A DNA stretch of 64,000 bases, from contig UQGU01000001.1 in the NCBI GenBank assembly GCA_900540635.1, positions 79,312 through 143,311 of the forward strand. The letters are read 5' to 3'. The notes below the pieces were generated by a model, which had not been told where the DNA came from, made no database searches, and saw only the letters and a list, made by a program, of their open reading frames with translations. A program made the position numbers and the translations under genes. Origin of the DNA: an uncultured Eubacteriales bacterium (GTDB lineage: Bacteria > Bacillota > Clostridia > Oscillospirales > Oscillospiraceae). Below are positions 14,093 through 51,421 of the stretch, one piece after another. Position 1 is the first letter of the stretch. Each line of letters begins with the position of its first letter.

Positions 14093-14206
14093 TGGGACGG
14101 TCCTCCGGGGGCCGCCCACAAAGGCGGCTCCCGGGGGTTCTATCTTCCAGCTTCTACAGAAGCATCTACCCCGTTAGGGGTATCTGCTTCTGCTTCTGTA
14201 TCATTT

Positions 14207-14285
14207 GGTATCCGTTGGTACCAAATGATACCAAATGGTACCACTGGTATCCACTGGCTACCGCCGGATGCCGCCGGTATCCGGC
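14207..14285. repeat. Phased array of eight roughly 10-bp units with a GGTAYC core
   Basis: ggtatccgtt, ggtaccaaat, gataccaaat, ggtaccact, ggtatccact, ggctaccgcc, ggatgccgcc, ggtatccggc. Contains two palindromic TGGTACCA sites. Confidence 0.7.
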
Positions 14286-14314
14286 GGCAGCTCTTCCCCG
14301 ACGGGGCAGGGCAG

Positions 14315-14348
14315 AAAAAAGCAGAGGCCCGGAAGCCTCTGCTTTTGG
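14315..14348 (-). terminator. Bidirectional intrinsic terminator ending the fhs-fchA-folD-FNT operon
   Basis: aaaaaa-gcagaggc-ccggaa-gcctctgc-tttt. Confidence 0.7.
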
Positions 14349-14359
14349 GAAGTATTTTC

Positions 14360-15172
14360 TTATGCCTTGGGCTTGCGGACGTAGCAGTACCACATGAGCA
14401 GGGCTACGGAGCAGCCGCCGACGATGTTGCCCAATGTTACGGGCAGCATATTGCCCAGGAAGTAGTGCCCCCAGGTCAGCGCCTCAAAGGCTGCGCCCTC
14501 GGCATAGAACTGCTTGCCGAACAGGCCCAGCATGCAATAGGTCATGTCCGCAATGGAGTGGTTGAAGCCGCAGGTGACGAAGAAACACACGGGAATCCAG
14601 GCACCGATGACCCGGCTGAACCCATCCTTTCCGGCCAGGCTCATGAGCACGCCCAGGGTCACCAGAATGTTGCACAGCACGCCCATGAAGAAGGCATTCT
14701 GGAAGGGCATGGTCATCTTGCCCTGGGCCACCTTCATGGAGGCGATGGCCAAGGCATTGGCGGTGTCGCCGTTGGCGGCGTTCAGCCAGCCGAAGCGGGC
14801 ACAGACAAAGCTCAAAAACATAGAGCCCAGGAAATTGCCGATGTAGACAAGAATCCAGTTCCGCAGCATTCCGGCAGCGGTTGCCTTCTTATCCAGCACG
14901 GAAATGAGGATCAGGGTATTGCCGGTAAACAGCTCTGCGCCGGTGAGGATCACCGTGCCCAGGCCGAAGGCGAAGAGGATACCGGAGATCATCCGGACGG
15001 TGGAATTGCCCACCACGGTATAGGTGGCCATATTGGTCACCACAGAGGGAACACCAATGAGGAAGCCTGCCAGAATTCCCAGCAGCAGCATTTTGGCAGT
15101 GGGGATCTTGGTCTTCCCCGCACCGGCTGCGGAATAGTTATTGGCGGCTTCCGCCATGGTAAAGAGGTTCAT
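14360..15172 (-). CDS. Formate/nitrite transporter (FNT family, FocA/NirC-like)
   Basis: 270 aa, with FNT-family membrane motifs. Confidence 0.85.
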   Translation of the reverse strand: MNLFTMAEAANNYSAAGAGKTKIPTAKMLLLGILAGFLIGVPSVVTNMATYTVVGNSTVRMISGILFAFGLGTVILTGAELFTGNTLILISVLDKKATAAGMLRNWILVYIGNFLGSMFLSFVCARFGWLNAANGDTANALAIASMKVAQGKMTMPFQNAFFMGVLCNILVTLGVLMSLAGKDGFSRVIGAWIPVCFFVTCGFNHSIADMTYCMLGLFGKQFYAEGAAFEALTWGHYFLGNMLPVTLGNIVGGCSVALLMWYCYVRKPKA

Positions 15173-15196
15173 AGAAATCGTCCTTTCCGATTGAAA

Positions 15197-16075
15197 TCAG
15201 GAACGCTTTTCTGCTGCCTCCACAACGTGCTTCATCAGGACGGAGGTGGTGACACTTCCAACACCGCCGGGGACAGGGGTAATGGCATCCACAATGGGCT
15301 CCACCTCGGAGAAACAGGCGTCGCCCGCAATGCCGCCCAGACCGCCCTTGGCATTGGGCTTGTTGGCGTCCCAGTTGATGGAAACATCGATGACCACCTG
15401 GCCGGGCCGGACATAATCCTTGGTCAGGGAGTTCAGCACACCGGCGGCGGAGACGATGATGTCCGCATTTTTGCAGATTTCAGCGGTATTGACGGTCTTG
15501 GTATGGCAGACGGTGACGGTGGCATTCTTGCCCATGAGCATCATGGCTGCGGGCTTGCCCACCACCAGGCTGCGGCCGATGACAACGGCATTCTTGCCCT
15601 TGCAGTCGATGCCGTAGTAGTCCAGGATCTCCATGCAGGCGGCGGGGGTGCAGGGGGCATAGCCCAGGTCCAGGCCCTCGAACACACCGGCATTGGACAT
15701 ATGGGTCATGCAGTCCACATCCTTCTTGGGATCAAGCCGGTTGCAGATCTCGTTCTGGTCCGCCTTCAGGTGTTTGGGCAGGGGCCGGAACATGAGCACG
15801 CCGTGGATGGAATCGTCGGCGTTGACCTGATCGATGACGGCCAGGACATCCTCCTTGGTCGCGTCCTCAGGCAGTTCGAACTTCTTGACCTCCACGCCCA
15901 CCAGCTCGGCCCGCTTCACAGCGCCCTTTTCATAGCTCAGGTCGCTGGGGTTGGCGCCCACACGGATAATGCCCAGGGTGGGGACGGTGCCCTTCTCGCG
16001 CAGGGCGGCGGTACGGGTCTGCAGGGATGCATTCAGTGCATCGGTAACTTCTTTGCCAAGTAACAGTTTTGCCAT
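15197..16075 (-). CDS. folD: Bifunctional methylene-THF dehydrogenase / methenyl-THF cyclohydrolase
   Basis: 292 aa with the typical FolD N-terminus and Rossmann region. Confidence 0.95.
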   Translation of the reverse strand: MAKLLLGKEVTDALNASLQTRTAALREKGTVPTLGIIRVGANPSDLSYEKGAVKRAELVGVEVKKFELPEDATKEDVLAVIDQVNADDSIHGVLMFRPLPKHLKADQNEICNRLDPKKDVDCMTHMSNAGVFEGLDLGYAPCTPAACMEILDYYGIDCKGKNAVVIGRSLVVGKPAAMMLMGKNATVTVCHTKTVNTAEICKNADIIVSAAGVLNSLTKDYVRPGQVVIDVSINWDANKPNAKGGLGGIAGDACFSEVEPIVDAITPVPGGVGSVTTSVLMKHVVEAAEKRS

Positions 16076-31658: not shown

Positions 31659-31708
31659 CCTTGGCTCTCCCTCTGGGAGAGCTGTCACCGAAGGTGACTG
31701 AGAGGGTC
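31659..31708. repeat. Left 50-bp inverted repeat flanking the DUF559 gene; contains two hairpins
   Basis: ccttggctctccc-tctg-ggagagc tgtcacc-gaag-gtgac tgagagggtc. It overlaps the last ~7 codons of the ORF. Confidence 0.75.
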
Positions 31709-32065
31709 TTGCAGACGCTTTTGAATGGTAAAATCAATTTGTTCGCACACACCACGAAAATCTCTGTCGATATCCCGGTTGGAAAATCGCAGAACATCCA
31801 AGCCTAGCGCAGATAAAAATGCGGAGCGTTCTGCGTCATACGCCACACCCTGAGGCTCATAATGCTGGGAGCCATCTACTTCGATAACCAGCTTTGCAGA
31901 AGCGCAGTAAAAGTCCACAATAAATTTGCCAATGATTCGCTGTTTATAAATCTTTACCGGATATTTACGCAGAAAAAGATACCAGAGTTTGCGCTCATGG
32001 GGAGTCATTTCTCTGCGAAGCCGCCGGGCATTTTCCAGCTGGCTGTTATCTTTTGGTATGGTCAT
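31685..32065 (-). CDS. DUF559 (Vsr-like) endonuclease-domain protein
   Basis: 126 aa, MTIPKDNSQLENARRLRREMTPHERKLWYLFLRK...FIVDFYCASAKLVIEVDGSQH, typical of DUF559. Confidence 0.8.
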   Translation of the reverse strand: MTIPKDNSQLENARRLRREMTPHERKLWYLFLRKYPVKIYKQRIIGKFIVDFYCASAKLVIEVDGSQHYEPQGVAYDAERSAFLSALGLDVLRFSNRDIDRDFRGVCEQIDFTIQKRLQDPLSHLR

Positions 32066-32071
32066 ATTTTT

Positions 32072-32119
32072 ACCCTCTCAGTCGGCTGCGCCGACAGCTC
32101 TCCCAAAGGGAGAGCCAAG
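32072..32119. repeat. Right 50-bp inverted repeat, the reverse complement of the left copy, with compensatory changes in the inner hairpin; it supplies the gene's RBS
   Basis: accctctca gtcggc-tgc-gccgac agctctccc-aaa-gggagagc caag. The left copy's inner hairpin is gtcacc-ttcg-ggtgac. Confidence 0.75.
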
Positions 32120-33551: not shown

Positions 33552-35417
33552 ATGGCCTATTTTGTTGACAAATGCGACGTGGCCGTCATCGGTGCGGGCC
33601 ATGCAGGCATTGAGGCCGCCCTGGCCGCCGCCCGGCTGGGGCTGCACACCCTTCTCTTCACCATCAACCTGGATGCCGTGGGCAATATGCCCTGCAACCC
33701 CGCCATCGGCGGCACCGGCAAGGGCCACCTGGTCCGGGAGCTGGACGCTCTGGGGGGCGAAATGGGTCTGGCCGCGGATGCAAGCTGCATCCAGTACCGG
33801 ATGCTGAACCGGGGCAAGGGGCCTGCGGTTCACTCTCTGCGCGCCCAGGCGGACCGGCGGCGCTACCAGGAATACATGAAGCACACCCTGGAAATGCAGG
33901 AAAACCTGGAGCTCAAGCAGGCCCAGATCACGGAAATTCTCACGCAGAACGGGGCCGTGACCGGGGTGCGCACCAACCTGGGGGCGGAGTATGGAGCAAA
34001 GGCCGTGGTCATCGCCACGGGGACCTATCTGGATTCCGCCGTCATCATCGGCGAAAGCGTCATCCCCTCGGGGCCGGACGGAATGCACCCCAGCATCGGC
34101 CTGTCCGACAGTCTGCGGAAGCTGGGGCTTTCCCTGCGGCGCTTCAAGACGGGTACACCCCCTCGGGTGAACCGGCGCAGCATTGATTTTTCCAAAATGG
34201 AGCTGCAGCCGGGGGACGAAACCGTGGAGCCCTTCTCCTTCCGGACGGACCGCAAGGTCAATAACTCCGCCGTGTGCTACCTGACCTACACCAGCGAAAA
34301 AAACCACGAGATCATCCGGGCCAATCTGTCCAGGAGCCCCATTTACGACGGCACCATCTCCGGCGTCGGCCCCCGGTACTGCCCCAGCATTGAGACGAAA
34401 ATCGTCCGTTTCCCGGAGAAACAGCGCCACCAGCTCTTCATTGAGCCCTGCGGGCTGAATACGGAGGAGATGTACATCCAGGGCTTCTCCTCCAGTATGC
34501 CCGAGGATGTGCAGCTGGCCATGCTGCACTCCGTGCCGGGGCTGGAGCACGCGGAGATGATGCGCCCGGCCTACGCCATTGAATACGAGTGCGTAGACCC
34601 CACCCAGCTGAAGCCCACCCTGGAATGCAAGCTGGTCTCCGGCCTCTACGGGGCGGGGCAGTTCAACGGCACCTCCGGCTATGAGGAGGCCGCCGCCCAG
34701 GGACTGGTGGCCGGTATCAACGCCGCCCTGAAAATTCTGGGACGGCCCCCCATGGTGCTGACCCGGGACACCAGCTACATCGGCACCCTCATTGACGATC
34801 TGGTGACCAAGGGCACCCAGGAGCCCTACCGGATCATGACCAGCCGCTCGGAATACCGGCTGCTGCACCGGCAGGACAATGCCGACCAGCGGCTCACGGC
34901 CATTGGCGCAGAAGTGGGTCTGGTGCCCCAGAGCCGGCTGGAAGAAGTGAACGCCAAATACGCCTCCGTCCGCCGGGAGATCAACCGCCTGGAAAGCAGC
35001 GGCGTGCCCGGAAGTCAGGCGCTGAACGAAATGCTTGCCGCCCGGGATACGGCCCCGGTGACCAATTCCGCGCGGCTTGCGGACCTGCTGCGCCGCCCCC
35101 AGGTCAGCTATGCGGACCTGGCCCCCTTCGATGGCTCGCGGCCGCCCCTGCCCGCCGCCGTGACGGAAGAGGTGGAGATCCAGGTGAAATACGCGGGGTA
35201 CTTAGCCCGGCAGGAGAAGCAGGTTGCGGAGTTCCGGAAGGAGGAGGCCCGGCTGCTGCCCCCGGACATGGACTACACGTCCATCCAGGGGCTTCGCCTG
35301 GAGGCCCGGCAGAAGCTCCAGGACATCCGCCCCGTCTCCCTGGGCCAGGCCGGCCGCATCTCCGGGGTAAGCCCGGCAGATATCGCAGTGCTGATGATCT
35401 ATCTGGAAAACAATTGA
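33552..35417 (+). CDS. mnmG: tRNA uridine 5-carboxymethylaminomethyl modification enzyme MnmG (GidA)
   Basis: FAD motif [17 protein letters not shown], with conserved MnmG regions throughout. Confidence 0.95.
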
Positions 35418-35441
35418 CAATTGACAGTTGACAGTTGACAA
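35414..35441. repeat. Tandem array of four TTGACA[AG] heptads, starting at the mnmG stop codon
   Basis: ttgacaa ttgacag ttgacag ttgacaa. Confidence 0.8.
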
Positions 35442-35495
35442 TTCGAAGCAATAGTTGAAATGCTGTTATTCTGAAAAGGTGGCCAGAGGGCGCTC

Positions 35496-35522
35496 CTTGG
35501 CTCCCCTGAAAGGGGAGCCAAG
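35496..35522. repeat. REP-like hairpin, family B (cttggctcccc-tgaaa-ggggagccaag)
   Basis: Perfect 11-bp stem. Related to the 13926-13950 hairpin and to the DUF559-flanking repeats. Confidence 0.65.
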
Positions 35523-35607
35523 CATGCGGCTATTACGAACCGCTCTATCATCGAACGCCCCTCTTCCACCGCTGCTTTCCATTCAAAACCGTCCCGTAGG
35601 GACACCA

Positions 35608-35640
35608 CAACTGTCAACTGTACACTGTCAACTGTCAACT
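35608..35640. repeat. Inverted array of TGTCAAC heptads, partner of the 35414-35441 array
   Basis: caa ctgtcaa ctgtaca ctgtcaa ctgtcaa ctcc. Confidence 0.8.
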
Positions 35641-35706
35641 CCTATTAGTCACATTCTCCGCCCACCTGCATACACTGTACCGTGAAACGGAATGTGGAGG
35701 TGCGCT

Positions 35707-36633
35707 ATGTCCATTGTGCAAACGGATGTGCCCATGACCTATGGGCTGTGTCACGAGACCATTGAGAAAATTGTGGAAGCCTACCCGGTGTGCAGCAGCC
35801 GCTGCATCGGGACCACGGCCTTTGGCCGGGAGATCGAGGCCATGGCCATCGGCAGCGGGGGACGAACGGTGCTCTTCACCGCCGCCCACCATGCCAACGA
35901 GTGGATCACGGCCACGGTGCTGCTGAAATTCGCCGAGGAGCTGTCCAGAGCCATTCTGGAAAAGGGACAGGTATACGGCATTCCCGCCAATTTATTCGAA
36001 GAGAACTGTCAGATCTTCCTGGTGCCCATGGTTGACCCGGACGGGGTGGATCTGGTGACGGGAGGCATTGCCCAGGGCAGCATTCAATGGGAGCAGGCAA
36101 AGCGCCTGTCCAATAACTGCCCCTCCGTCCCCTTCCCGAATGGCTGGAAGGCCAACCTGCTGGGGGTGGACCTGAACCTCCAGTACCCCGCCGGATGGCT
36201 CCAGGCAAGAGAGATCAAATTCTCCCAGGGCTACACCAGGCCCGGCCCCCGGGACTATGTGGGCAAGGCCCCCCTGACCCAGCGGGAGAGCCGGGCTCTG
36301 GCAGACTTCACAAGCTACCTAGACCCCGCCCTGATCCTGGCCTACCACACCCAGGGGGAGCAGATCTACTGGAAGTATGACGACATCGACGTGCCCGGCG
36401 CGTTGGCTCTGGGGCAGGAATTCGCCAGACTGTCCGGCTATTCCTTAGAGGAGACCCCCTACGCCTCCGGCTTTGCGGGCTACAAGGACTGGTTCATCAA
36501 GGTCTGGCGGCGGCCCGGCTTCACCATTGAGGCAGGGCTGGGCGAGAATCCCCTGCCCATTTCCCAGTTCGACACCATCTATGCGAAGAATCTGGGCATT
36601 CTGACCACCGCCGCCCTGGGACTGCCCGCATAG
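35707..36633 (+). CDS. M14-family zinc carboxypeptidase (gamma-D-glutamyl-diamino-acid peptidase-like)
   Basis: HANEW zinc-binding motif. Overall M14 layout. Confidence 0.75.
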   Translation: MSIVQTDVPMTYGLCHETIEKIVEAYPVCSSRCIGTTAFGREIEAMAIGSGGRTVLFTAAHHANEWITATVLLKFAEELSRAILEKGQVYGIPANLFEENCQIFLVPMVDPDGVDLVTGGIAQGSIQWEQAKRLSNNCPSVPFPNGWKANLLGVDLNLQYPAGWLQAREIKFSQGYTRPGPRDYVGKAPLTQRESRALADFTSYLDPALILAYHTQGEQIYWKYDDIDVPGALALGQEFARLSGYSLEETPYASGFAGYKDWFIKVWRRPGFTIEAGLGENPLPISQFDTIYAKNLGILTTAALGLPA

Positions 36634-43942: not shown

Positions 43943-44374
43943 TCAAAAATAGAGCTCGCTTGCCAGGTTGCCGTGGACATAGAGGCACACGGCCTTGCGC
44001 ATGAAGCTCTCCGTTACGCCGAAGAAGTCGGCCAGCTGCCACAGCTCCGTATAGCCCAGGGCAATGGCCTCGTCCAGCTGCTCCACGGGGATCAGGGCAC
44101 GGATGGCCCATTTATCCGCATGGTTTTCATGGCGCTGGCGGCAGTCCACTGTGGCATAGATGTTGTAAAAGCTGCCGGTCAGGCAGTGCCCCAGCTCGTG
44201 GCCCAGGTGCATCCGCTCCTGGATGCCGCCGTCCAGCACCCGGTCATCCATGCCGATATAGCAGGTCCCATCCGGCTCCATCAGGGACATGGAGCCGTTT
44301 TCCTTCATAGGGTACCGGAGTACGGCAATATTCTGCCTGGAAGCCAGGTCATACAATTCCGGCACCTGCGTCAT
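43943..44374 (-). CDS. ImmA/IrrE-family metallopeptidase
   Basis: HELGHCL (HExxH) motif. Confidence 0.8.
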   Translation of the reverse strand: MTQVPELYDLASRQNIAVLRYPMKENGSMSLMEPDGTCYIGMDDRVLDGGIQERMHLGHELGHCLTGSFYNIYATVDCRQRHENHADKWAIRALIPVEQLDEAIALGYTELWQLADFFGVTESFMRKAVCLYVHGNLASELYF

Positions 44375-44376
44375 GG

Positions 44377-44751
44377 CTACTCCTTCTTCGCCCGCTCGTT
44401 TTTTCGTTTTCTGGCTTCCCGCTGGCGGACGAAGGCGGCAAAGCTCAGGACCTCATCGTACATGGCATCGGTGATATCGCCGCTGCCGCCGAAGAGGGCG
44501 AACTTGATATCCTGCTGGGTCACCGGGCGCACATCCTCTTCCGGCTGAGATGCATCATTGGCACCCAAGAGCTCGGAAACAGAGATGCCGAAATAACGGC
44601 AAAGCTTATCAATGACGTTGCCGGAGGGCTTGGTATTGGGATCTTTCTTCCATTTGGTAACGGTGGATTTGCTGAGACCCGCATCAATGGCGGCCTTGGA
44701 GGTGCTGACACCCCGCTGCTTGCAAAGCAGGACGAAACGCTCATAGAACAT
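44377..44751 (-). CDS. XRE-family HTH repressor (ImmR-like)
   Basis: QRGVSTSKAAIDAGLSKSTVTKWKK. Confidence 0.8.
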   Translation of the reverse strand: MFYERFVLLCKQRGVSTSKAAIDAGLSKSTVTKWKKDPNTKPSGNVIDKLCRYFGISVSELLGANDASQPEEDVRPVTQQDIKFALFGGSGDITDAMYDEVLSFAAFVRQREARKRKNERAKKE

Positions 44752-44999: not shown

Positions 45000-45323
45000 A
45001 TGTGTCCAATAAAGCGGACAAATATGTGGGAGGTTGGGAAAAATGAAAAAATTTTGCAGCACGACCCCGGGAAATTTTCCCGGAAGGCTCGGAAAAGGCA
45101 GGAACGTATGACAGCCCCCTGGGCTCTGGACCTGCAGCGGCAGGAAAAATGGGACCGTTTTCTGAAACGGCGGCCCCGATGCGCCCTGTGCGGAGGGCCG
45201 ATCCTGGAGGATGAGGCTCTGGTATTAGACGGAAAGTTCTACTGCTTGCCTTGCGTGAGCTGGAACACGGAGGAGGTGACGGAATTTGACCCCGGACTGG
45301 AAGGGTATTCGCTTGGATTATAG
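45000..45323 (+). CDS. Small zinc-finger protein; the true start may be downstream, for example the ATG at 45107
   Basis: CALCGGPI...CLPCVSW. Confidence 0.4.
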   Translation: MCPIKRTNMWEVGKNEKILQHDPGKFSRKARKRQERMTAPWALDLQRQEKWDRFLKRRPRCALCGGPILEDEALVLDGKFYCLPCVSWNTEEVTEFDPGLEGYSLGL

Positions 45324-45849
45324 CCAGGGTATGACCCAGTCGGCGCTGCAAGCCAAATACGGCGTGGCTGCTTCCACCCTGCGAAAACGCATCCGCGCCG
45401 AGGGATGGTCCCGGAAGGAAAGCGCAAAAGTTCAGGAAGACGAACAAATCCCAGTTTCTGTCCCGCGCTCCCCTGCCCCAGACCCGCGGCTGACACGGGT
45501 AGATGCCCTGGCGGATGCCATGCTGGGCTGCCTGGAGCGGGCGGTCAGGGAGCTGGATACGGTAACGCAAAACGTACGGGAGAAATCCAAGCTGGAAGAC
45601 GGAGCCGAGCTGGTTACGGATTTTGAACGGCTTCTGCCCGAGGAGAAGGGCATCATCGACCGGGGCGGGCTGAAGCAGCTCACCGGAGTGCTGAAGGACA
45701 TCAAGGATGTGCTCACCCTGCGCTCCGATGCGGACACCCGGGAGCAGGAGGCCCGCATCGCCAAGCTGCAGCGGGATCTGGACCGGGAAACGGAGAAGGC
45801 CTCTGTTACGGTGGTTCTGGAAGGAGAGAGCGGGTGCTATGCCGAATAG
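45286..45849 (+). CDS. Putative terminase small subunit / HTH DNA-binding protein
   Basis: IRLDYSQGMTQSALQAKYGVAASTLRKRI HTH. Sits immediately upstream of TerL and overlaps it. Confidence 0.5.
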   Translation: MTPDWKGIRLDYSQGMTQSALQAKYGVAASTLRKRIRAEGWSRKESAKVQEDEQIPVSVPRSPAPDPRLTRVDALADAMLGCLERAVRELDTVTQNVREKSKLEDGAELVTDFERLLPEEKGIIDRGGLKQLTGVLKDIKDVLTLRSDADTREQEARIAKLQRDLDRETEKASVTVVLEGESGCYAE

Positions 45850-47344
45850 CGTTCTCATCATGCCCAGGCCCAATGAGAAGCAGCGCCTGGCCCTGACGGA
45901 AAAGCACCGCTACGTGGGCTACGGCGGAGCCCGGGGCGGCGGCAAAAGCTGGTTCGTCCGCTGGAAAGCGATCTTGCTGTGCCTGCATTACCCAGGCATC
46001 AAGGTACTCATCACCAGAAAGACCTATAAGGAGCTGTTCAACAACCATATCGCTCCCTTGCAGCAGCTGCTCGCAGGGGTGGCCGAGTACAAAAGCACGG
46101 ACAAGCTCATCCATTTTCCCAGCGGAAGCACCATTTCCTTCGGCTACTGCGCAGCGGATGGGGACCTGGGGCAATACCAGGGTGCGGAATACGACGTGTG
46201 GTTTGCCGATGAGGCAGGGCAGTTCCAGGAGGAATGGCTGGTGCAGATCGACGCCTGCGTCCGGGGCGTCAACCCCTTTCCCAAAAGGACCTACTACACC
46301 CTGAACCCCGGCGGACCTGCCCACGGCTACTTCAAGCGGCTGTTCATCGACCGGAATTTTACGGAAGAGGAGCACCCGGAGGACTATGCCTTCATCCAGG
46401 CCCTGTGCACGGACAACAAGGCTCTGATGAAAAGCCAGCCGGAATATCTGCGTGCCCTGGAAAAGCTCCCGCCGAAGCTGCGGGAGGCCTGGCTCTACGG
46501 CCGCTGGGACGTATACGAGGGCCAGTTCTTCGAAGAATTCCGGAACGACCCCAAGCACTATCGGGACCGCCGCTTCACCCATGTCATCGACCCCTTTGAG
46601 ATTCCGAAGCACTGGACCGTCTACCGCAGCTTCGACTGGGGCTACCACAGGCCCTTCTCCTGCGGCTGGTGGGCCGTAGACCCGGACGGGGTGGCCTACC
46701 GGATTCTGGAATTCTACGGCTGCACAGGGGAGCCCAACGAGGGACTCAGGTGGCCGCCTCAGCAGGTGTTTGCGAAGATCCGCGCCATTGAACGGGAGCA
46801 CCGATACCTGGCAGGGAAAAAGATCATCGGCATTGCAGACCCGGCCATCTGGGACGGCTCCACAGGCGAATCCATCGCCGACACGGCGGCGAAAAATCAG
46901 GTGTATTTCTCCCCGGGAGACAACAAGCGCATTCCCGGCTGGATGCAGCTGCACTACCGGCTGAGCTTTGACGAAGCGGGCCTTGCAAGGCTCTATGTCT
47001 TCCGCAACTGCCGCCACTTTATCCGCACCCTTCCCCTGCTGCAATATGACAAGTCCAGCCCCGAGGATCTGGACACCCAGGGAGAGGACCATGCGGCGGA
47101 CGAGGCCCGGTATTTCTGCATGGCTCGGCCCATTGCACCCCGGGAGCGGCCGGAAATCAGGAAAAAGAGCAGCGCTGCGCTGTTTCTGGATATTGAAGAA
47201 GAAAATACGGTCCCAAGAAGACCGGGAATGGAGATCATCAATGAAGCAAGCAATGCAGATCGGGCCGGAACAGGTCCGGGCCGCCCGGATGATCCTGAAC
47301 CGCTGCCGGGAGGGCAAGGCCAACCTGGAGCGGCGGGTCATTGA
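45839..47344 (+). CDS. Terminase large subunit
   Basis: Walker A GYGGARGGGKS and an ATPase coupling motif. Nuclease acidic residues are in the C-terminal half. Confidence 0.85.
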   Translation: MPNSVLIMPRPNEKQRLALTEKHRYVGYGGARGGGKSWFVRWKAILLCLHYPGIKVLITRKTYKELFNNHIAPLQQLLAGVAEYKSTDKLIHFPSGSTISFGYCAADGDLGQYQGAEYDVWFADEAGQFQEEWLVQIDACVRGVNPFPKRTYYTLNPGGPAHGYFKRLFIDRNFTEEEHPEDYAFIQALCTDNKALMKSQPEYLRALEKLPPKLREAWLYGRWDVYEGQFFEEFRNDPKHYRDRRFTHVIDPFEIPKHWTVYRSFDWGYHRPFSCGWWAVDPDGVAYRILEFYGCTGEPNEGLRWPPQQVFAKIRAIEREHRYLAGKKIIGIADPAIWDGSTGESIADTAAKNQVYFSPGDNKRIPGWMQLHYRLSFDEAGLARLYVFRNCRHFIRTLPLLQYDKSSPEDLDTQGEDHAADEARYFCMARPIAPRERPEIRKKSSAALFLDIEEENTVPRRPGMEIINEASNADRAGTGPGRPDDPEPLPGGQGQPGAAGH

Positions 47345-49992: not shown

Positions 49993-51012
49993 ATGAACAT
50001 CACATCTTTGCAGCACTTTGCGGACAATCCCACGGTGAACGTCACCACCGACTCCAAGCTGTCCGCGGAAAACAAGACCTTTTATGACCGCGCTCTGGTA
50101 GAGGAGGCAGGGCCTAACCTGATCCACGGCCAGTTCGGCCAGAAGCGGCCCATTCCCAAGAATGGCGGCAAGCGCATTCAGTTCCGGCGCTATGCCTCCC
50201 TGCCCAAGGCTCTGAAGCCCCTGACCGAGGGCGTCACCCCCGAGGGCCGGAAGCTCAGCGCCACTGCCGTGGAGGCGGAGGTAAACCAGTACGGCGACTT
50301 TGTCTGCCTGTCCGATGTGCTGGACCTGACCGCCATTGACAATAACGTGCTGGAGGCCACCAAGGCCGTGGGCCGTCAGGCCGGCCTGACCCTGGACACC
50401 ATTACGAGAAACGTTTTGCAGTCCGGCACCAACGTGTTCTACTGCCCCAAGGTTGGGGCCAACGGCGTTCAGACCCCGGTGACGGACCGCTCCGGCCTGG
50501 ACAAGACCTGCACCCTCACCGTAGACGTGGTGAAGAAGGTGGCCGCCATGCTGAAGGCCGCCAACGCCCCCAAGATCGACGGCGACTATGTGTGCATCCT
50601 GCACCCCTATGTGGCCTATGACATTATGTCCGATCCCCGCTGGGAGGAAATGCACAAATACACCACCCCCGAAAATATGTACCAGGGGGAGATCGGCCGG
50701 ATTGCCGGTGTGCGTTTTGTGGAAACCTCCGAAGCGGCGGTTTACAAGGGCACGGAAAACAGCTGTCCCACGGGCCTTGCCGTGTTCGGCTGCCTGTTCA
50801 TTGCCCAGGGCGCCTACGGCGTGACCGAGGTCACCGGCGGCGGACTGCAGACCATCATCAAGCAGCTGGGCTCTGCGGGCACGGCCGATCCTCTGGACCA
50901 GCGCAGCACCGTGGGCTGGAAGGCATTGCAGACGGCGGAGATCCTGATGGAGCCCTACATGGTCCGGGTGGAGTGCTGCTCCGCCTTCAGCCCCACGGCA
51001 GAGGCGAATTGA
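49993..51012 (+). CDS. Major capsid protein
   Basis: 339 aa directly after the scaffold gene. N-terminal SLQHF|ADNP Prp-type motif. Confidence 0.75.
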   Translation: MNITSLQHFADNPTVNVTTDSKLSAENKTFYDRALVEEAGPNLIHGQFGQKRPIPKNGGKRIQFRRYASLPKALKPLTEGVTPEGRKLSATAVEAEVNQYGDFVCLSDVLDLTAIDNNVLEATKAVGRQAGLTLDTITRNVLQSGTNVFYCPKVGANGVQTPVTDRSGLDKTCTLTVDVVKKVAAMLKAANAPKIDGDYVCILHPYVAYDIMSDPRWEEMHKYTTPENMYQGEIGRIAGVRFVETSEAAVYKGTENSCPTGLAVFGCLFIAQGAYGVTEVTGGGLQTIIKQLGSAGTADPLDQRSTVGWKALQTAEILMEPYMVRVECCSAFSPTAEAN

Positions 51013-51013
51013 G

Positions 51014-51046
51014 AGTTGACAGTTGACAATTGACAGTTGACAGTTG
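51014..51046. repeat. Tandem array of five GTTGACA-type heptads, starting at the capsid gene stop
   Basis: gttgaca gttgaca attgaca gttgaca gttggcg. Confidence 0.8.
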
Positions 51047-51142
51047 GCGGAGACTGTGGACTGTCACGGTGTGTGGAAGATAGACAGAAAATTTGAAATT
51101 GACAGGGAAAGTTGATAGTAGATGGTGGTTATTAAGAAAATA

Positions 51143-51173
51143 ACTGTCAACTGTCAACTTTCAACTGTCAACT
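51143..51173. repeat. Inverted array of TGTCAAC heptads, partner of the 51014-51046 array
   Basis: actgtca actgtca actttca actgtca actg. Confidence 0.8.
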
Positions 51174-51193
51174 GAACCGAAGGGAGCGTTCAT

Positions 51194-51421
51194 ATGGAAG
51201 AGAAGACGACTGTTACGATTCGCCTGCCCCTGACCCGGGAGCAGCGGGAGGATGTATTTGTGGGCATCAACGGCAAGACCTGGCTCATCAAGCGGGGCGA
51301 GGCGGTAGAGGTGCCCTGGAATGTGGCCCAGGTGCTGGCCCGGCGGGAGAAGAGCCTGGCCGATGCCATGGAATTCGAAGCCCAGGCGGCCCAGCCCCTG
51401 GAGCATCTGGAGGGCAGATAA
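51194..51421 (+). CDS. Hypothetical small head-module protein
   Basis: 75 aa. The AAGGGAG RBS directly follows the heptad array. Confidence 0.5.
   Translation: MEEKTTVTIRLPLTREQREDVFVGINGKTWLIKRGEAVEVPWNVAQVLARREKSLADAMEFEAQAAQPLEHLEGR

Follow-up and report, generated by a model that had tools for sequence, protein, structure and literature searches.

Inverted heptad arrays after mnmG and after a prophage head gene in an Oscillospiraceae genome: probable ends of gene-less elements of the intervening-sequence type

What are the short tandem repeats that fill two unrelated intergenic gaps in the genome of an uncultured Oscillospiraceae bacterium? In contig UQGU01000001.1 (assembly GCA_900540635.1, positions 79,312 to 143,311; this whole 64-kb stretch is the window referred to below), direct reading of the sequence reveals four arrays of the heptad RTTGACA, which form two inverted pairs: locus 1 occupies the gap between mnmG and an M14 peptidase gene, and locus 2 a gap behind a prophage head gene. 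An earlier note on this DNA had described these arrays and proposed either a protein-binding array of the iteron type (for example a centromere, a site for packaging or terminase, or one for a nucleoid organizer) or the ends of a small non-autonomous element. Our analysis leads to the view, to which we give a probability of about 60%, that each locus is one gene-less, palindromic selfish element of the intervening sequence (IVS) type, whose arms form a probable transcript hairpin cut by RNase III. Sequence comparison identifies the arrays as the terminal inverted repeats of a widespread, polar class of heptamer elements, some members of which bear a PF05635 gene while others are gene-less. Like the PF05635 cassettes, the window copies fit into the gap from an upstream stop codon to a downstream ribosome-binding site (RBS) or start codon, and alignments of close strains and phages indicate that the arrays are gained, lost, resized and interrupted.

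The arms and interiors of the two loci are given here, with periods and copy numbers from Tandem Repeats Finder (TRF).

35410..35443, plus strand: left (5') arm of locus 1, four RTTGACA heptads; TRF period 7, 4.9 copies
35444..35607, no strand: interior of locus 1, 164 nt, unrelated to the interior of locus 2
35608..35640, minus strand: right (3') arm of locus 1, four TGTCAAC units, one of them degenerate (TGTACAC); TRF period 7
51008..51046, plus strand: left arm of locus 2, five heptads, the first being ATTGAGA; TRF 5.4 copies, period 7
51047..51141, no strand: interior of locus 2, 95 nt, with partly degenerate heptads able to pair with the adjoining arms
51142..51174, minus strand: right arm of locus 2, four TGTCAAC units; TRF 4.7 copies, period 7

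The units of locus 1 read ATTGACA ATTGACA GTTGACA GTTGACA on the left (35413-35440) and TGTCAAC TGTACAC TGTCAAC TGTCAAC on the right (35612-35639); its arms (30 nt) are 87% complementary and 165 nt apart, and those of locus 2 (32 nt) are 94% complementary and 96 nt apart. Over the 64 kb, TTGACARTTGACA with at most one mismatch has 11 matches against 0.09 expected, and the looser pattern GACAN3GACAN3GACA has 10 against 0.18; every match to either pattern falls within the four arrays. The tandem GTTGACA/ATTGACA heptads with inverse TGTCAAC arrays that had been described at the two loci are thereby borne out, as is the remark that the sequences between the arrays differ. Two other details of that description need adjustment. 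The arrays had been placed right after the stop codons of the preceding genes, but the stops themselves are part of the repeats: the mnmG TGA (35415-35417) lies inside the first AATTGA unit of the left array of locus 1, and the head-gene TGA (51010-51012) inside the first unit of the left array of locus 2. Likewise, the inverse arrays were said to end 15-60 bp before the next gene, which agrees with locus 2, where the start codon follows after 19 nt (51194) and the right arm ends 7 nt before an AAGGGAG RBS; at locus 1 the distance is 66 nt (start at 35707, preceded by a GGAGGTG RBS), or 51 nt if the start is at 35692.

Is such an arrangement peculiar to these two gaps? With the pattern TTGACARTTGACARTTGACA, 79 loci were matched in viral contigs and at least 120 in genomes, the latter belonging to Oscillospiraceae, other Clostridia, Bacteroidales, many filamentous Cyanobacteria, Planctomycetes and others. 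Arrays limited to two loci and unconserved elsewhere, a prospect raised by the earlier note, are thus not what was found: they recur in viral, genome and metagenome sequences. Where two arrays lie at most 400 nt apart, their order is (GTTGACA)n…(TGTCAAC)n in 37 pairs and the reverse in a single one, whose arrays are 389 nt apart; as pair order survives reverse-complementing, this polarity is intrinsic. Adjacent arrays therefore come as inverted pairs in essentially one order, though single unpaired arrays are common as well. The spacers cluster at 11-26 nt and at ~55-130 nt, and 13 of 14 pairs stand between co-directional genes (rough gene call). Among 36 distinct elements, the commonest unit number is 4 per arm, that is 28 bp (22 left and 26 right arms), and the proportion of A-type to G-type units is correlated between the arms (r = 0.68). 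A forward array offers TGA in all three frames and an inverse array offers no stops; stop codons were nevertheless judged insufficient as a cause of the polarity, because most elements do not overlap the end of an open reading frame (ORF).

These regularities bear on one alternative, namely that the arrays are plain heptanucleotide simple-sequence repeats (SSRs), of the short tandemly repeated repetitive (STRR) or long-SSR type, which arose by slippage on the arms of pre-existing hairpins and have no identity as elements. Heptanucleotides are reportedly the commonest class of long SSRs in bacteria, with slippage proposed as their origin (Mrázek 2007, as cited in PMC4679880), and the window arrays do meet the definition of heptanucleotide long SSRs and STRRs (period 7, 4.7-5.4 copies, intergenic, beyond chance); moreover, unit numbers change by 7 or 14 nt at a time, unpaired arrays are frequent, and single TTGAC-like words are present near the site in array-less relatives (L210, L228). 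Slippage alone, however, fails to explain the 37:1 polarity, the mode at four units, the same heptad core across phyla, the conserved module of ATTATGG plus hairpin described below, and the constant association with one gene family (PF05635), and we hold this alternative to be quite improbable.

The composition of the units bears in turn on transcription. Each heptad had been characterized as a consensus −35 hexamer plus one base. This is true of this copy and does not extend to the family, which conserves GACA as its core and often has G in place of T3 (ATGGACA, GTGGACA, GCGGACA); the −35 identity thus belongs to this copy, and the resemblance is incidental. The idea that the loci are transcription signals, either a stacked −35 promoter cassette or an inverted repeat acting as intrinsic terminator, can invoke a TTGACA-17-GACAAT match scoring 10/12 at 35414-35442, a TTGACA-16-TATGGT arrangement at the family junction, and the fact that the elements occupy usual terminator positions. 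Nevertheless, the TTG of the −35 hexamer is not conserved, the motifs face inward and not toward the downstream gene, and arrays are also found in Bacteroidetes, whose promoters differ; on the terminator side, both right arms lack a U-tract behind them, and the main stems were not called as terminators in the scan. We regard both forms of this idea as highly improbable. The promoter and terminator scans of the window loci returned nothing beyond one small inner hairpin and −35/−10 look-alikes that the repeat itself generates. Resemblances to Spo0A 0A-box, Fur, NarL, integration host factor (IHF) and CsrA motifs were dropped, their spacing or consensus being a misfit or the proteins being absent in some array-bearing phyla.

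Some larger or modified arrangements were seen along the way. Widely spaced (+ … −) arrays enclose trpS in Microcoleus (L197) and a multi-heptad palindrome in Prevotella sp. tf2-5 (L114, 4060-4610); the latter spans ~540 nt around an AT-rich center, and its arms consist of serial heptad families (AGATTAC, AGATTTC, CAGTTGA, CAGTCTC, AAACAGT). In two loci of one metagenome-assembled genome (MAG; CAVLCF01), a unit of interior plus short array is tandemly amplified between one forward and one inverse array, fourfold at a 118-nt period (L106, 3410-3895) and twofold at a 155-nt period (L192, 2520-2870); this layout looks like that of repeats and spacers, yet the "spacers" are identical, and it recalls the modularity of BOX elements and bacterial interspersed mosaic elements (BIMEs).

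What, then, do such arrays enclose? Among the fetched loci, the only gene that recurs between a forward and an inverse array encodes a ~120-aa four-helix-bundle protein matching PF05635 (E = 1e-21 to 1e-29), TIGR02436 and PDB 2rld, the family of the 23S rRNA IVS protein. A heptad array stands directly upstream of all 11 distinct PF05635 genes examined (L244-group, L313/L240, L321, L113, L139, L354, P0163, P0126, P0232, P0207 and P0151), and an inverse array downstream of 10 of them; within this set, L354 was fetched by protein similarity alone and the five P-proteins were chosen only for their contig counts. The cassettes of L244, L313, L321, L113 (a Chromatiales MAG), P0163, P0126 and P0232 have the same arms as the window elements, and different units occur in L139 (AGTTAGA/TCTAACT) and L354 (GTAGGAT/ATCCTAC); P0232 has both arrays, P0207 a weak forward array and P0151 a forward array only. 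Every cassette read at the sequence level occupies a short gap between neighbouring genes, such as cysD and cysN (P0163) or GHMP kinase and nucleotidyltransferase genes (P0126), and in the L244-group, L321, P0163, P0126, P0151 and P0232 (L382) the forward array reaches or includes the upstream stop codon and the next gene begins soon after the cassette. Unit numbers vary between samples by 7 or 14 nt (L355, L358, L364; L367, L368, L370), and many contigs with such genes are only 520-760 bp long. A PF05635 profile scan of the viral contigs yielded one locus. The ORF of the cassettes starts ATT-ATG-G straight after the array, which is the ATTATGG of gene-less members; the derivation of gene-less from gene-bearing copies that we suggest rests on this junction together with the shared arms, polarity and geometry.

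One of these cassettes is found in two contexts: it is preceded by rfbC (dTDP-sugar isomerase) in L382/L383 and by a PF01797 Y1_Tnp gene (positions 1-331) of the IS200/RAYT type in L381/L384 (RAYT, transposase associated with repetitive extragenic palindromic, REP, sequences), with rfbA downstream in both contig types.

The question of whether the window loci resemble the gene-less members beyond their arms was addressed with a metagenome scan for the junction between array and interior (TTGACARTTGACAATTATGG), which gave at least 120 loci in gut samples (termite, human and rumen), falling into a Bacteroidetes-like and a Firmicutes-like class. In the former, (ATTGACA)n ATT ATG abuts the start codon of ordinary genes. 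In the latter, the layout consists of (RTTGACA)~4, ATTATGG and a small hairpin, followed by a T/A-rich stretch, in most cases another hairpin, and (TGTCAAY)~4, with spacers mostly of 52-76 nt. Of 31 distinct Firmicutes-like members, 87% (4% of shuffles) have a perfect hairpin of 5 bp or longer that begins 0-2 nt past the junction, and 61% (5.5% of shuffles) have one on the mirror side, the stems having 23 different sequences; folding of the spacer only gives a mean z of −2.5. Two features of the interior of locus 1 are relevant here.

35496..35522, no strand: perfect 12-bp hairpin CTTGGCTCCCCT-GAA-AGGGGAGCCAAG, nested in the interior of locus 1
35590..35611, minus strand: module of the gene-less family, namely a GTTGTGG junction (35605-35611), the hairpin GTCCC-TAC-GGGAC (35590-35604), then GGTTTTGAA

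The right part of the interior is thus the conserved module of the gene-less family, and the left part resembles an insertion seen in relatives L231 and L233. The minus strand of locus 1 aligns with L232, L305, L086, L268 and L111, and shares RTTRTGG, GTCCC-N3-GGGAC and TTTGAA with the family, an alignment that assigns locus 1 to the gene-less family of gut Firmicutes. Of the two readings offered at the outset, the ends of a small non-autonomous element is therefore the one that gains support, from the 37:1 polarity, from the gene-bearing PF05635 members and from the gene-less members sharing the module of locus 1. The locus-1 junction scan of viral contigs found nothing, the window loci match no Rfam family at the gathering threshold, and for 10 typical family members an Rfam E-value scan returned only chance long-hairpin (microRNA precursor) matches.

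Two further observations concern these metagenome loci. In the Bacteroidetes-like class, the array abuts the start codon and no inverse array follows the gene in L234, L238, L271, L330, L337, L340 and others; the genes, identified by eye, are hisIE-like, AcrB-like, hexapeptide-repeat/γ-carbonic-anhydrase-like, a sugar transporter and RNase HII-like. In termite gut, a composite repeat of CCTAACCCGGACAAGCCGGA plus (ATTGACA)4 plus ATTATGGTATCGCTTCGCGATGA…GCCTAA, mostly without a right array, is present in many contigs (L236, L243, L248, L255, L257, L261, L276, L322, L324, L333).

Are the elements stable where they stand? Loci with and without arrays, for which the earlier note had recommended a search among related strains, were found at both the mnmG and the capsid sites. 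At the capsid locus, phages with an identical capsid protein carry the same element, and relatives at 95-100% identity keep it; in L202 and L205 (95-96%), the interior is homologous and fast-diverging and both arms have switched to ATTGACA/TGTCAAT units, and in L203 the left arm is shortened. Most relatives with 61-77% capsid identity (L208-L216) are devoid of arrays and have a short GC-rich hairpin between the capsid stop and the next RBS, L207 has a short gap with no visible hairpin, and L204 (84%) a long, different intergenic region. At the mnmG locus, L228 (neighbour protein 89% identical) has a GC hairpin and its MnmG ends in ..YLEGK*; in the window, MnmG ends in ..YLENN*, the array having replaced the last two codons and the stop. 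Arrays are missing in L229/L230 (87%), and the element of L232 (86%), which is of the ATTGACA type, has GTCCCGAAGGGACACCAT in common with the window interior. L231 and L233 encode the same M14 peptidase protein as L232, yet their left array is split and their right array deleted. According to these orthologous-site comparisons, the element is inherited, fast-evolving and dispensable, and stands in place of an ordinary post-gene hairpin. The window elements thus look dispensable, and any influence on the adjoining genes is probably modest at most; they are ordinary, probably near-neutral members of a large family.

In L231 (2140-2330) and at the same site in L233, the left array is split by a ~190-nt insertion bounded by CGAATCAA…TTGATTCG, which has a GC-rich inverted repeat of its own. 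A phage with a 96% identical capsid protein (L006, 3964-3998) carries an extra, unpaired array of five GTTGACA units that starts right at the TGA terminating the gene ahead of the capsid gene, a site at which the window has only a 15-nt gap.

Presence and absence at orthologous sites is also what a miniature inverted-repeat transposable element (MITE) would show, the arrays being then the inverted repeats bound by a transposase that moves the copies in trans. Terminal inverted repeats of ~28 bp with fixed polarity, the presence within one contig of several copies sharing an interior (L039, L133), the breaking of assemblies at arrays and the Y1_Tnp gene preceding one cassette all agree with this. 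Conversely, no transposase gene turned up between the arms, PF05635 being the sole recurrent cargo; the interiors of the two window copies are unrelated; the outer ends are fuzzy and decay outward into partial heptads; no target-site duplication was found at the window sites or in the 37 pairs; and the window sites are replacements instead of clean insertions (~47 nt differ from L228). Transposition of this kind is, in our estimate, unlikely.

How would an IVS-type element act at such sites? The two window loci fold with z-scores of −6.6 and −7.7 for the minimum free energy (MFE). In the MFE fold of locus 2, the heptads of the interior (inverse-sense at 51052-51066, forward-sense at 51087-51125) pair locally with the adjoining arms, and in the centroid fold the outer parts of both arms pair with each other. 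If the flanking genes are co-transcribed, the arms would pair into a stem of ~28-32 bp, at the place where relatives have a GC hairpin. By analogy to the Coxiella IVS and to the Haemophilus hmw hairpin, this stem is a predicted substrate of RNase III, and cutting would release the interior and split the upstream message (mnmG or capsid) from the downstream one, with a probably small effect on the neighbouring genes. The number of units would drift by slippage, and the two arms would be homogenized together.

Two relatives lie in rRNA operons, the only ones to do so: in L260 (2218-2329), a forward array is located 85 nt upstream of the 5' end of the 16S rRNA gene, and in L284 another element is found downstream of the 16S 3' end, presumably in the spacer that leads to the 23S gene. 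Both lie within precursors processed by RNase III and outside mature rRNA.

Several points weigh against an IVS-type element acting through its transcript, among them the replacement-like sites and the missing target-site duplications already given. Variant units are unmirrored between the arms (874 of 994 bases match, against 876.9±4 after shuffling of the unit order), and arm mismatches are not biased toward G·U on the sense strand (13 sense, 17 antisense and 30 of other kinds), so we do not claim that RNA pairing in the arms is under selection; their similarity may come from common origin or concerted evolution alone, and the elements may be just tolerated. A bare RNA stem accounts less well for the 37:1 polarity than element termini or a protein ruler do. 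In addition, the window copies lie between protein-coding genes, one chromosomal and one in a prophage, and not in helices 9, 25 or 45 of 23S rRNA as IVSs do; neither carries the gene, there being no PF05635 match in any frame of the window; no gene-bearing cassette was seen in surroundings that were clearly Firmicutes; locus 2 possesses arms but not the ATTATGG-plus-hairpin module; and the host rnc gene is not in the window.

Part of this evidence would suit a DNA-level iteron, in which a protein of the ω/ribbon-helix-helix type, a small terminase, a nucleoid protein or the PF05635 protein itself polymerizes on the double-stranded repeats, the converging arrays serving as a platform. Direct and converging units at a 7-bp period are known from ω operators, the 37:1 polarity and the preference for four units are expected from a protein ruler, the variant units are uncompensated between arms, and PF05635 proteins are linked to the arrays. 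Yet neither locus adjoins a par, ω-like or ribbon-helix-helix gene, and the small terminase gene lies at a distance of 5 kb; the arrays follow genes, in stop-to-RBS gaps between mostly co-directional genes, and are not in promoter regions or at par and terminase genes; the same heptad occurs in core chromosomal operons of distant phyla; arrays are lost between near-identical strains, even where the neighbouring protein is identical; and a plain RNA-type hairpin is found at the same site in array-less relatives. The iteron proposal thus found no backing in its centromere, packaging or nucleoid-organizer forms, and we consider a protein-binding platform of any sort a poor candidate; the gene-less IVS-type element is our preferred explanation of both loci.

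The genes around the two loci are the following.

33552..35417, plus strand: mnmG, upstream of locus 1 (Pfam GIDA, E=1e-164)
35707..36633, plus strand: M14 carboxypeptidase gene, downstream of locus 1 (Pfam Peptidase_M14)
43943-44374, minus strand: ImmA-like metalloprotease, at the prophage start
44377-44751, minus strand: ImmR-like repressor, at the prophage start
45286-45849: small terminase subunit, prophage
45707-47344: large terminase ORF, prophage
49993..51012, plus strand: prophage major head protein gene, upstream of locus 2 (phrog_1357, E=1e-84)
51194..51421, plus strand: small conserved phage gene, downstream of locus 2 (phrog_15239), kept at the same position in relatives

Exact copies of the MnmG and M14 peptidase proteins are present in human-gut metagenome contigs, and Logan unitigs with the peptidase gene (L222-L226) begin exactly in the right array of locus 1. 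The prophage starts near 43.9 kb; in the phage reference collection, only unannotated human-faecal phage contigs were matched, at 64-73% identity. The tRNA scan found no tRNA. The genes at 37.5-43.7 kb, including a PAP2 gene, are on the minus strand. Elsewhere in the window, the FTHFS RNA motif RF02981 (18665-18783, minus strand; 91.6 bits against a gathering score of 72.6) is the sole Rfam match. Inverted arms of 48 nt, 88% complementary (CTTGGCTCTCCC..GGGAGAGCTGTCACCGAAGGTGACTGAGAGGGT), at 31660-32119 enclose a 126-aa ORF on the minus strand (31685-32065), called PF04480/DUF559 in a matching contig; the hairpin at 35496-35522 resembles these arms. At 14198-14262, a cluster of 10-nt tandem and inverted repeats of the TACCAAATGA type, with adjacent 22-nt arms (86% complementary), lies at the start of the ORF 14225-16063 and is operator- or leader-like in appearance.

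A wider proposal would unite these observations: the inverted heptad arrays would be the termini of a single, very large, cross-phylum class of IVS-type elements, whose autonomous form encodes a PF05635 (S23p/Avd-like) protein and whose gene-less miniatures reside in operons and phages, the protein and host RNase III mediating excision at the RNA level and possibly spread and unit-number dynamics. This proposal is tentative and, as a whole, rather doubtful. If true, it would explain much of the excess of heptanucleotide repeats (STRR, TAACTGA, long SSRs), give a role to the orphan family PF05635/TIGR02436, and link heptanucleotide repeats, 23S IVSs with an S23p gene, and the unexplained long hairpins of gut Clostridia and their phages in one class with a testable RNA-level mechanism, namely RNase III cleavage of the heptamer stem; in phages, where the element closely follows the major capsid gene, processing of the mRNA could determine how much capsid protein is made relative to downstream proteins. 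In practical terms, heptad arrays break short-read assemblies and supply stop codons to upstream genes, and gene callers may over-extend downstream genes through the stop-free inverse array.

With which known systems, finally, do the window elements compare? The architecture of the family, and its link to IVS/PF05635 cassettes and heptanucleotide repeats, do not appear in the literature searched, and a literature search for the exact repeat gave only unrelated primer sequences. The ω operators of pSM19035 are alike in having contiguous 7-bp units, direct and converging; they differ in that the unit is WATCACW, located in par and copy-control promoters on plasmids and bound by a known ribbon-helix-helix protein, a context and a protein not present here.

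A second likeness is with Correia elements (also named Neisseria miniature insertion sequences, NEMIS; PMC2649163), enterobacterial repetitive intergenic consensus (ERIC) sequences, BOX and REP/BIME, all of them non-autonomous, hairpin-forming and co-transcribed with their neighbours; Correia elements are bound by RNase III, which cuts or protects them (PMC2649163), and BOX and BIME show modular tandem amplification of the kind seen in L106 and L192. In all of these, unlike the present elements, the arms are unique sequences and not tandem heptads. Correia elements duplicate TA and have an IHF site, and REP sequences have a GTAG head and RAYT transposases, none of which was seen in the window elements. 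The description of the arrays as not REP-like was misleading as regards placement, hairpin potential and modular amplification, which are REP/BIME-, BOX- and IVS-like; neither the ~35-nt GTAG-headed palindrome nor a RAYT was seen at the window loci.

Of the same unit length are the TAACTGA repeats and long SSRs documented without explanation in Cyanobacteria, Bacteroidetes and Beggiatoaceae (PMC4679880). Like the present arrays, these and STRRs have a 7-nt unit, are intergenic, often touch start or stop codons, occur in the same phyla, share an AACTG/CAGTT core and break assemblies (PMC4679880). TAACTGA repeats are described, however, as direct (169 direct sets against 1 inverted in 'Maribeggiatoa'; PMC4679880), and neither a paired, fixed polarity nor a link to PF05635 is part of the STRR, TAACTGA or long-SSR descriptions.

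In Haemophilus influenzae, an (ATCTTTC)n array found upstream of hmw1A enters the transcript and folds into a long hairpin that RNase III processes, and changes in repeat number require RNase III, transcription and the hairpin (PMC12721329). As in this 5' untranslated region (UTR), the heptanucleotide array of the window elements would be the arm of a long hairpin and varies in repeat number, the RNase III step being predicted here; in hmw, by contrast, the second arm is a G-rich non-repeat, the heptamer is ATCTTTC, and a phase-variable adhesin is controlled by the array, which lies in its 5' UTR (PMC12721329).

The nearest parallel is the IVS of the Coxiella/Leptospira type. That of Coxiella burnetii is a 428-nt selfish element in 23S rRNA with an S23p ORF; its terminal inverted repeats make up a 28-bp stem, and three tandem GACAGAT units plus one GACAGAA, in strain-variable number, stand just upstream of the ATG (PMC4990558). 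It is excised by RNase III, the 5' cut falling in the stem at the start of the first repeat, and the excised RNA is rapidly degraded, with no phenotype detected (PMC4990558). Unlike such IVSs, the window copies have no ORF, and the excision demonstrated for Coxiella is a prediction for them. GACAGAT differs at one position from GACAGTT, a rotation of GTTGACA. In common with Coxiella and Leptospira IVSs (PMC4990558), the family presents inverted repeats that would pair to a stem of ~28 bp, GACA-core heptamers in the arm, a variable number of units and a selfish or phenotypically silent character, and in gene-bearing relatives the arms enclose a PF05635 gene whose ATG follows directly after the array.

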